Shown: positions 15,684-26,556 of the stretch, piece after piece
Numbering within the stretch: the stretch's first letter is position 1
How the letters are laid out: each line of letters opens with the position of its first letter
Assembly: GCA_004298345.1 (NCBI GenBank)
Contig: SCTV01000075.1
Location: forward strand, 1-27,005
DNA: 27,005 bases
Direction of reading: 5' to 3'
Source: Patescibacteria group bacterium
Lineage (GTDB): Bacteria; Patescibacteriota; Minisyncoccia; Phycocordibacterales; PALSA-1337
Translations under genes and position numbers: made by a program
Notes under the pieces: model-generated
What the model saw: only the letters and a program-made list of their open reading frames with translations
What the model was told of the DNA's origin: nothing
Databases searched by the model: none

Positions 15684-15756
15684 GCCACCTTAGCTCAGTT
15701 GGTAGAGCACCCGTTTTGTAAACGGGATCGCGTCAGTTCGACTCTGACAGGTGGCT
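15684..15756 (+). tRNA. tRNA-Thr (anticodon TGT), CCA not encoded
   Basis: Acceptor GCCACCT/AGGTGGC; D arm GCTC-AGTTGGTA-GAGC; anticodon arm CCCGT-TTTGTAA-ACGGG; T arm GTCAG-TTCGACT-CTGAC; discriminator T. Confidence 0.96.
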
Positions 15757-15876
15757 CTGAAATGAAATGGAAGAGACGCCTGTTGGAAGGGGGTCGGGGA
15801 AAATGGCGTTTCCCCGTGGAGGAAGGCAGTGAGTACTCGAGCGTGGGAAAACCGTGGGTTTCCCAGGTGACAGGAC

Positions 15877-25085: not shown

Positions 25086-26333
25086 CTATTTTTTCTCCCT
25101 GATCTCTTTATTCAATTTTTCCAACACTTCTTCGGCACTCATCTGGCCAAGGTTGCCACTGTCTCGACTTTCGAGAGTAACTTTTTGAGCAGCAATGTCT
25201 TTGTCACCAATGATGATGAAGTAAGGAATCTTTTCTACTTTTGCAGCACGGACTTTTTTGCCAAAACCTTCATTTCCAAGTGAGAGCTCGCAGCGAATCT
25301 GCGCTTCACGGAGCATTGTGTATACCTTTTTTGCCTCTGCCTGGTGTTGCTCATCTATTGGAATAATTTTTACCTGTACCGGAGAAAGCCAGAGAGGGAA
25401 GGCGCCCATATATTTTTCAATAAGAAAAGCAATGATACGTTCGATCGCACCGACCGATGAGCGGTGTACCACTCGAGCGAGCTCTTCTTTGCCGGCTTCA
25501 TTTATGTAAGTCAGATTAAATCGGCCAGGCATACAGAAGTCGTACTGGACGGTAAAGGCGGTGTCCTCTTTGCCATTAGCATTTTTCATCTGAATATCTA
25601 TCTTTGGGCCATAAAATGCCGCTTCATCTTTTGCTTCAGTAAACTTACTTCCTCGCTTTTTCAACAATGCACGCAAGAGCCCCTCGCTTTTTTCCCATGC
25701 AGCATCATCTTTGTGGTATTTTTCAGTGTTGGTGATATCACCGAGGGAAAGTCTGTACCAGTAGTCAGTATCTTTTTTGAGACCCATAGTTTCGGTCACA
25801 AATTCGATGAGGTCGAGTGCCTTACCGATTTCTTCTGTAGCTTGCTCATCATCTTTACAGATAATATGTGCATCTGAAAGACAAAATGTACGAACACGCT
25901 GAAGACCCATGAGCTCTCCAGATTGCTCATATCGATAGAGCCGTGCAAGCTCGGCAATACGTACCGGTAGTTCTTTGTACGTATGTGGTTTGCGGAGATA
26001 GAGCTCGAAATGATGGGGACAGGTCATCGGACGGAGCATAAATTCCTCATCATCGATTTTGATCGGCGCATACATTGAATCCTGATAATGTGGATAGTGA
26101 CCAGACTTACGGTAGAGATCAAGCTTGGCGATCTCTGGTGTGTAGACGTGTTTGTAGTCGCGCCTAGTTTCCTCGTCCACGATAAAGCGTTCGAGCTCAC
26201 GGCGAATCACCGAGCCTTTTTCGGTCCAGAGGGGAAGACCTTTGCCGACTGATGTTGAAAAAGCAAAGAGGTCGAGCTCTTTTCCGAGTTTTTTGTGATC
26301 GCGCTCTTCGGGAGCGGGTGTTGGTGTTGTCAT
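25086..26333 (-). CDS. thrS: Threonyl-tRNA synthetase, short form lacking N-terminal TGS/editing domains (415 aa)
   Basis: It begins directly at RDHKKLGKELDLF. Motifs LYRKSGHY, LRPMTCPHH, ELARLYRYEQSGELMGLQRVRTF, DAHI, AFYGPKIDI, TVQYDF, VHRSSVGAIER and FPLWLSPVQV, then the anticodon-binding domain. Confidence 0.95.
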   Translation of the reverse strand: MTTPTPAPEERDHKKLGKELDLFAFSTSVGKGLPLWTEKGSVIRRELERFIVDEETRRDYKHVYTPEIAKLDLYRKSGHYPHYQDSMYAPIKIDDEEFMLRPMTCPHHFELYLRKPHTYKELPVRIAELARLYRYEQSGELMGLQRVRTFCLSDAHIICKDDEQATEEIGKALDLIEFVTETMGLKKDTDYWYRLSLGDITNTEKYHKDDAAWEKSEGLLRALLKKRGSKFTEAKDEAAFYGPKIDIQMKNANGKEDTAFTVQYDFCMPGRFNLTYINEAGKEELARVVHRSSVGAIERIIAFLIEKYMGAFPLWLSPVQVKIIPIDEQHQAEAKKVYTMLREAQIRCELSLGNEGFGKKVRAAKVEKIPYFIIIGDKDIAAQKVTLESRDSGNLGQMSAEEVLEKLNKEIREKK

Positions 26334-26363
26334 GTTAATAAAATTATAAATAATAACGAAACT

Positions 26364-26521
26364 GCCCGAGCGATTCAGACAAAATATGTCTGAGTCGCTC
26401 GGGCGGGGAGATTCCTCGTGGTTCCACCGAGCTTTCCGTTTGAGACGGACACTTCATTACTTCAGATTAGGGTTGTTACCTCGCTTGCGCGTTTGCGGGT
26501 GGTAGCCGCAACAACTTCTGT
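26364..26521 (-). promoter_or_regulatory. T-box riboswitch-like leader of thrS
   Basis: On the minus strand: Stem III TCCGT-CTCAA-ACGGA, then AA-GCTCGG-TGGAACC-ACG (T-box). GCTCGG can pair with the downstream CCGAGC, which also forms part of an 18-bp terminator-like hairpin (26364-26404). Confidence 0.85.
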
Positions 26522-26527
26522 ATTTAT

Positions 26528-26556
26528 AGTATATGCCCGATTTGGGCGTAGGTCAA
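26528..26556 (-). promoter_or_regulatory. Promoter for the thrS leader, TTGACC-N17-TATACT
   Basis: The + strand has GGTCAA at 26551-26556 and AGTATA at 26528-26533. Confidence 0.75.

Follow-up and report, generated by a model that had tools for sequence, protein, structure and literature searches.

A compact thrS leader in Patescibacteria predicted to act as a threonine-specific T-box riboswitch with a four-way-junction decoding domain

A 27,005-nucleotide (nt) stretch of contig SCTV01000075.1 (the window) from a Patescibacteria group bacterium (assembly GCA_004298345.1; 708 kb in 91 contigs, a genome size typical of the Patescibacteria) carries on its minus strand thrS, the gene for threonine--tRNA ligase, preceded by a leader with the parts of a T-box. 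Based on its anatomy and its conservation among relatives, the leader is very probably a Thr-specific, transcription-attenuating T-box riboswitch, with a minimal four-way junction as its decoding domain and a specifier in an apical loop. The locus consists of the following features.

25086..26333, minus strand: thrS, threonine--tRNA ligase, 415 aa, AUG at 26333 (TIGR00418, 470 bits, profile positions 170-564)
26521-26341, minus strand: thrS leader, with promoter, 59-nt 5' domain, Stem III, T-box antiterminator and competing terminator
26528..26556, minus strand: predicted promoter TTGACC-17-TATACT (-35 box 26556-26551, 17-nt spacer, -10 box 26533-26528)
26517..26520, minus strand: P1 5' strand CAGA, junction-closing helix at the extreme 5' end of the transcript, partner 26466-26463
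26512..26516, minus strand: J1/2 AGUUG, with the last two bases of P1 the conserved GARRUYG motif
26493..26511, minus strand: P2 specifier hairpin UUGCGG-CUACCAC-CCGCAA, 6-bp stem, 7-nt loop 26505-26499
26503-26501, minus strand: Thr codon ACC (P2 loop positions 3-5), followed by the conserved 3' purine A 26500
26482..26491, minus strand: P3 hairpin CGC-GCAA-GCG, from the minimum-energy fold and relatives
26471..26480, minus strand: P4 hairpin GGU-AACA-ACC, short; loop in relatives often GNRA or UUCG
26467..26470, minus strand: J4/1 CUAA (CYAA among relatives)
26463..26466, minus strand: P1 3' strand UCUG, pairs with 26520-26517
26450..26462, minus strand: purine-rich linker AAGUAAUGAAGUG, 3' end AAGUG
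26435..26449, minus strand: Stem III UCCGU-CUCAA-ACGGA, then AA 26434-26433
26397..26432, minus strand: antiterminator (RF00230 alignment)
26432-26427 with 26402-26397, minus strand: helix A1, GCUCGG with CCGAGC
26426-26420, minus strand: T-box bulge UGGAACC, 7 nt
26418-26404, minus strand: helix A2 CGAGG-AAUCU-CCCCG
26341..26404, minus strand: intrinsic terminator, hairpin GCCCGAGCGACUCAGACA-UAUUU-UGUCUGAAUCGCUCGGGC at 26404-26364 (-33.7 kcal/mol), U-rich tail 26361-26341

The predicted transcription start at ~26521 lies 72 nt upstream of Stem III, and the first 59 nt of the transcript, up to and including the 3' strand of P1, form a 5' domain whose minimum-free-energy (MFE) structure is exactly a four-way junction of P1, P2, P3 and P4. 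The original prediction, made from the letters of the window, had counted about 70 nt before Stem III, had considered this too short for a canonical Stem I and had drawn both a hairpin with a Thr codon in its terminal loop and a second hairpin with a GCAA loop. The spacing holds, as does the lack of room, in that the -10 box adjoins P1 and no AG bulge or distal-loop motif was found in the 59-nt domain, and both hairpins are present as P2 and P3; they are part of the closed junction P1-P4, though, and not free elements. An alternative fold that had also been proposed, GUUGUUGC/GUAACAAC (GUUGUU/AACAAC), can form only in the window and in the relative closest to it (G002) and was dropped as not conserved. 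On the 3' side, the AAGUG of the linker matches the RRRxG string that is defined as preceding Stem III (PMC7583486), and the 3' strands of A2 and A1 both fall within the terminator's 5' arm (26404-26387), which makes antiterminator and terminator mutually exclusive.

From this anatomy we infer that the leader binds tRNA and responds to its charging. The first 59 nt transcribed from ~26521 would fold into the junction, and the 7-nt apical loop of P2 would offer ACC and the following A to the GGU anticodon of tRNA-Thr. The 3' UCCA of an uncharged tRNA-Thr would pair with the UGGA of the bulge and stabilise the antiterminator (26432-26397), giving read-through into thrS, whereas a charged tRNA would be unable to stabilise it and the terminator hairpin (26404-26364) with its U tail would form and stop transcription. 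The junction may serve to hold the specifier loop ready for pairing and to set the orientation of the linker and the discriminator. P4 and CYAA may be a remnant of Stem IIA and the F-box, with P1 replacing helix IIB.

A DNA search among relatives returned four clear homologous leaders, and a wider search used a covariance model, R1, restricted to the 5' domain (P1 and P2, 64 positions; T-box core left out), a choice made because a whole-leader MAFFT alignment misaligned the variable Stem III and P3. R1 matched 33 of 150 genomes of the same family, with one match each, and gave 17 matches besides the window's own in 150 genomes of the same order, 14 of which were verified; one true match was found in ~145 genomes from other orders of the class and none in ~144 genomes from other classes of the phylum. 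Three matches (L079, L080 and L082) were rejected as false, possessing neither a T-box core nor thrS. The core GGUGGAACC, which is absent from R1, is present 18-212 nt 3' of the 5' domain in all 46 verified matches, and thrS lies downstream in 45 of these, the remaining locus ending at a contig end. In a check anchored on thrS, covering 1 kb upstream of the gene in 20 genomes of the family without a genome-level R1 match, 19 were without a T-box core and one (G030) carried the same motif, ACC included.

A scan by sequence pattern, with each species represented by one genome, found at least 119 stretches, and 76 of the 80 listed were true. These 76 came from records named Patescibacteria, Parcubacteria or Paceibacterota (Kaiser-, Adler-, Nomura-, Campbell-, Taylor-, Lloydbacteria), 'Saccharibacteria' or simply bacterium. 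Matches in Desulfurivibrio, Desulfuromonadaceae, Pseudomonadales and Promethearchaeum records were rejected as chance occurrences within unrelated sequence, with no hairpin and no thrS. The pattern required ACCA and is therefore uninformative on conservation of the codon. Judged by the sequence matches, the motif is confined to one class of Patescibacteria and mostly to one order. The distance from the 5' junction to the T-box core is 32 nt in the window and 212 nt in a leader from a species of the same genus (L051; G001:C1:218935-219300), which has an insertion between the decoding domain and Stem III.

Comparison among the homologues provides the structural evidence for P1 and P2. In an alignment of 46 sequences fitted to R1, the two helices are paired in 98.2% of cases, with nine of ten pairs changed on both sides, and the same columns are paired in 30-38% when partners are moved by 1-3 columns; P1 alone is 97.8% paired, with double changes at three of its four pairs. 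Since this alignment had been fitted to the model, the count was repeated with 16 diverse members aligned by MAFFT without the model, where P1 and P2 together are 96% paired and P1 95%, against 28-39% when slid. RNAalifold predicted P2 unaided from the MAFFT alignment, with compensatory changes at all six pairs, and did not recover P1, P3 or P4 from these 16 members; P1 was then tested by the explicit pair counts, and P3 and P4 by counts of hairpins against shuffles. The P2 loop has the consensus N-Y-ACC-A-N, and ACCA is invariant in all 46 R1 matches and in the leader found by way of thrS. As high-scoring matches could tolerate a substitution in the loop and still be found, this invariance is not the result of search bias alone.

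In most members the segment that links P2 to the 3' strand of P1 folds into a pair of neighbouring hairpins, the helices being separated by 0-1 nt. A hairpin of 4 bp or more begins within 0-1 nt of P2 in 71% of loci (32% of shuffles), and one of at least 2 bp ends directly before CYAA in 96% (61% of shuffles), or in 63% as opposed to 29% when at least 3 bp are required. P3 ranges from 3 to ~20 bp among relatives, and P4 takes many forms, including GC/GC, GGC/GCC, GUC/GAC, GGA/UCC, GCA/UGC and others, frequently with GAAA loops. The joints of the junction are conserved, the 5' one reading GARRUYG and the 3' one CYAA. A specifier located 3' in the junction (CCU, CUA, or ACC in P4) was rejected, as these triplets are either not Thr codons or not conserved. 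The pyrimidines of J1/2 (UYG, window 26513) and J4/1 (CYAA, 26469) co-vary, with U/U in 34 loci, C/C in seven and discordant bases in three; this co-change is not of the Watson-Crick kind and may reflect a tertiary contact or shared ancestry.

The flanking signals and the discriminator are also shared. In 45 of 46 loci P1 is preceded by a TAnnnT -10 box at a distance of 2-12 nt (mostly 7-9 nt), in many cases accompanied by a -35 box, which indicates that the RNA begins at P1 and leaves no upstream room for a long Stem I. A script scored terminators in 38 of the 46 loci, as U-tailed hairpins with energies between -21 and -45 kcal/mol; of the other eight loci, two (L050 and L054) show a terminator by eye, one is truncated by the end of its contig and five scored as weak or mis-delimited. 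The presence of terminators in most loci argues that the output is transcription termination. The UGGA bulge is found in all homologous loci and AA lies directly upstream of helix A1 in 110 of 111.

Three tRNA-Thr genes, with anticodons GGU, CGU and UGU, are present in the genome, and each has a discriminator U and consequently a 3' end UCCA. GGU is complementary to ACC, and UCCA to the UGGA of the bulge. The tRNA-Thr(GGU) gene, in which CCA is encoded, lies at 840-915 of contig C67 (G000:C67:840-915), together with the CGU gene on that contig, while the window itself holds a tRNA-Thr(UGU) gene (15684-15757, plus strand, discriminator U), an isoacceptor that does not match ACC.

Further T-boxes of the same family were collected with RF00230 at a relaxed threshold, with downstream genes named using NCBIfam, and a second compact leader was found in the window's own genome (G000).

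L205 and about ten others, including L208 and L216: aspS leaders with hexaloop CUGACA and bulge UGGC; kink-turn (K-turn), AGUAGAA S-turn Stem II, CCGAUA F-box and terminator
L204: ileS leader with apical loop ACUAAUCA (AUC) and bulge UGGU; F-box CCCGUCA and terminator
L202: serS leader with a long Stem I and bulge UGGC
G000:C29:55-185 (L001), minus strand: second compact T-box, with homologues L225 (G001) and L231 (G002)

L205 and L204 are class III-like and score 35-51 bits. The class III-like T-boxes of the family are Asp-specific as well as Ile-specific and end in intrinsic terminators, whereas the literature examined presents class III as ileS leaders that are mostly translational. In the C29 leader, a -10 box is followed by a closing helix AAGCC/GGCUU around a GAC-A hairpin (CACGC-UCUGACAAU-GCGUG) and one more hairpin, forming a three-way junction, downstream of which are Stem III, a UGGC bulge and a terminator; the gene downstream of this type of leader in G001 is an aspS of the non-discriminating type. 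The upstream part of the Rfam match at C29, GAUGAGAUGAUCUAUUAG, is the end of a neighbouring open reading frame and not a K-turn. Across these leaders GAC-A precedes aspS and AUC-A precedes ileS, so that loop triplet and bulge base switch in step with the downstream synthetase, as a specifier reading predicts. The original prediction had proposed a new, compact T-box with an apical ACC that would sense a tRNA-Thr(GGU) encoded outside the window. The gene is indeed outside it, with a discriminator that matches the bulge, ACC-A is fixed in every homologous leader found, and the compact form is supported by the covarying stem, the transcript start at the base of the domain and the codon and bulge swaps of the sister leaders; the novelty of the architecture holds against Rfam 15 and the T-box literature examined.

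At the gathering threshold Rfam reports no T-box in the window, its sole match being a tRNA. At a relaxed threshold RF00230 aligns to the leader with 22.4 bits (local E 0.006), below the gathering cut-off of 93; the discriminator (T-box core, Stem III and antiterminator) fits well, whereas 85 positions of the Stem I model are deleted and P2 is placed on Stem II. The whole leader folds better than shuffled sequences (z = -4.8).

Reviews describe four classes of T-box: class I, with a long Stem I bearing an elbow platform, plus Stem II; class II (glyQS), in which Stem II is absent; class III, with a short Stem I and the specifier in a 5-6-nt apical loop, which needs a K-turn and a Stem II S-turn (PMC10482949); and class IV, with an intermediate Stem I, classes III and IV being mostly translational and actinobacterial (PMC10482949, PMC7583486). 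Transcriptional T-boxes are said generally to need the elbow platform for fast tRNA capture, and the S-turn is said to impose C as the third codon base (PMC7583486, PMC10482949), while a specifier is by rule a codon followed by a purine (PMC7583486). The thrS leader has the general characters of a T-box, namely a UGGN bulge that matches NCCA, mutual exclusion of antiterminator and terminator, a specifier that matches the gene and is followed by a purine, and the series RRRxG, Stem III and AA. The parts of classes I and II are absent from its 59-nt domain, in which neither a GA-motif nor AGUA/GAA accompanies the missing AG bulge and distal loop.

Class II glyQS (RF00230) resembles the thrS leader in attenuating transcription, in having no Stem II domain and in the single-stranded linker before Stem III, but its Stem I measures ~85-100 nt and includes a K-turn, an S-turn within an internal specifier loop and a distal platform for the tRNA elbow, compared to a whole decoding domain of 59 nt without these. 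The closest likeness in decoding is to the class III ileS leaders of Nocardia farcinica and Mycobacterium tuberculosis (PDB 6UFM, 6UFG), which share the short Stem I without a double T-loop platform, the apical specifier with a conserved A and C as third codon base, and the discriminator with its Stem III, purine string and UGGN bulge; P2 thus has the apical specifier of that class. These leaders differ in the K-turn beneath Stem I and in a Stem II whose S-turn, a 5-purine string, is needed for tRNA binding, both absent from the thrS leader, and in a IIA/B pseudoknot with an F-box, to whose IIA and F-box P4 and CUAA bear a likeness by eye. They are also Ile-specific, mostly actinobacterial and translational with a 5-6-nt loop, whereas the thrS leader is Thr-specific and patescibacterial with a 7-nt loop and a terminator and is closed by P1 into a four-way junction. 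Sequestration of a Shine-Dalgarno sequence, as in class III, was not seen in the window, where the terminator has a U tail and no Shine-Dalgarno sequence within its hairpin. The aspS and ileS leaders of the family (L205, L204 and G000:C29) have the same hosts, apical specifier with A and terminator output, and the C29 leader likewise starts at its closing helix right after the -10 box. They differ in codon and bulge (GAC/UGGC and AUC/UGGU), and further in that L205 and L204 keep the K-turn, S-turn Stem II and IIA/B F-box and the C29 type has a three-way junction with different joints. The predicted decoding domain is one that fits none of the four described classes, with sensing logic and a discriminator that are those of T-boxes. 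In TBDB, T-boxes with a short Stem I were searched for in Actinobacteria only and RF00230, which misses the thrS leader, was used otherwise (PMC7778990), and an incomplete coverage of the literature returned no publication linking T-boxes with the candidate phyla radiation (CPR), Patescibacteria or Parcubacteria.

Several observations weigh against a Thr-sensing T-box of this form. The helper motifs that have been described as needed, the K-turn and S-turn of apical-specifier T-boxes and the platform of transcriptional ones (PMC7583486, PMC10482949), are not recognisable, which leaves tight and fast capture of tRNA by the thrS leader unexplained. The 5' domain alone folds no better than shuffles (MFE -14.4 kcal/mol, z = -0.54), so that single-sequence thermodynamics is not the evidence for the junction, whose support comes from comparison. 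The statistics for P3 and P4 are weaker than those for P1 and P2, and two leaders (L077 in G041 and L078 in G272) have 7-14 unpaired nt in place of both hairpins, with P1 and P2 kept and the T-box core, terminator and thrS still downstream. A closing G.U wobble of A2 has been described as the sensor of the aminoacyl group, whereas the closing pair (window 26419 with 26403, minus strand) is mostly not this canonical steric sensor, being G-C in 63, G.U in 26 and A.C in 18 of 111 loci, with A.C in the window. Lastly, the U tail of the window's terminator is interrupted (UUUCGUUAUUAUUU).

A derivation from class III is a possible, if somewhat doubtful, account of the same parts, in which P2 would be Stem I, P3 a Stem II that lacks the S-turn, and P4 with CYAA the equivalent of Stem IIA and the F-box, helix IIB having been re-targeted to the 5' end as P1 in place of the K-turn; the leader would then operate like class III, with some substitute for the S-turn. 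The order of elements is identical, class III likewise has an A after an apical specifier (PMC10482949), and the family possesses class III-like aspS and ileS T-boxes with K-turns, AGUAGAA S-turns and F-boxes CCGAUA or CCCGUCA, to whose CC-GAUA or CC-GUCA the CC-CUAA after the short hairpin bears a likeness. That likeness to Stem IIA and the F-box was judged by eye only. Other features are at odds with the derivation. A K-turn reading of GARRUYG/CYAA, the strands flanking P2, was rejected, as there are no tandem sheared G.A pairs and no such pair next to a 3-nt bulge, and neither AGUA/GAA nor a conserved internal loop occurs in any P3, including those of ~20 bp. The loops of P4 are mostly closed tetraloops, which speaks against a pseudoknot with a IIA loop, and UCUG pairs with the 5' end, with which P1 covaries in a closed junction, and not with a loop. 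The Rfam alignment, at only 22 bits, places P2 on Stem II instead of Stem I.

The three remaining alternatives deny the specifier, the short Stem I or the mode of output. It is very unlikely that the P2 loop is not a specifier and that the 5' domain binds, for instance, threonyl-tRNA synthetase (ThrRS) or is a mere folding scaffold, with the tRNA read at its NCCA end alone. Such a role would draw on the anticodon-arm-like shape of P2, with a 6-bp stem and a 7-nt loop C-U-NNN-A-A, and on the autoregulation of E. coli ThrRS through an mRNA mimic of the tRNA-Thr anticodon arm. The E. coli thrS operator likewise regulates the same gene through a leader hairpin of this shape, but it copies the anticodon and binds the enzyme, whereas the Patescibacteria loop carries the codon and is joined to a full T-box discriminator and terminator. 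The triplet ACC is not a copy of an NGU anticodon and so cannot mimic tRNA-Thr, it becomes GAC before aspS and AUC before ileS together with the bulge base, and with its following purine it obeys known specifier rules (PMC7583486). A translational switch or a decayed relic is highly unlikely: the interrupted U tail and the lack of a visible Shine-Dalgarno sequence would suit either, but 28 nt separate the hairpin from the AUG and no ribosome site lies within it, GC-rich hairpins with U runs recur across the homologues, and strong conservation and covariation speak against decay. An ordinary T-box with a long Stem I and a true start further upstream is the least credible. The start is a predicted one, which would leave room for this reading, but a -10 box lies close before P1 in nearly all loci, P1 closes the domain, the sequence upstream of that box is not conserved, less than ~130 nt remain in the window before a divergent gene, and no AG bulge or distal-loop motif accompanies the deleted Stem I positions of RF00230.

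With a Thr-specific, transcription-attenuating T-box as the preferred reading, a further step, to which we attach a little less than even confidence, would be to regard the leader as a fifth architectural class and the smallest natural T-box, at 125 nt counted from the transcription start through the antiterminator. Capture of tRNA would be co-transcriptional and, in this fifth class, would use two contacts, the loop-loop contact of anticodon and specifier presented by the junction and the pairing of NCCA with the bulge, with no elbow contact, K-turn or S-turn. Should this be so, the helper modules considered essential to affinity, speed of capture and the 'third base C' rule would be dispensable; otherwise, they would have been replaced by the GARRUYG and CYAA strands, by tRNA modification or by a protein factor of these reduced bacteria. 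The third-position C is strictly kept in the thrS leader despite the lack of an S-turn. Were the leader to work as proposed, it would define the minimal requirements of the T-box mechanism, would supply structural and synthetic studies with a tRNA-sensing module of very small size, and would mean that annotation of the Rfam and TBDB type misses T-box regulation in the CPR.

Some further observations concern the start of thrS and its product. A TATAAT box lies at 26343-26348 (minus strand), inside the U-rich tail of the terminator and 9 nt before the thrS AUG, and could be a second promoter for basal, T-box-independent expression of thrS or merely AT-rich sequence. In the window's ThrRS (415 aa) the TGS and editing region is missing from the N-terminus, as it is in a few relatives (frames of 406-436 aa), while most are ~590 aa. 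The ThrRS downstream of one leader (L075), in a genome assigned to another family, is 90.6% identical to that of the window, which could reflect transfer or mis-binning.

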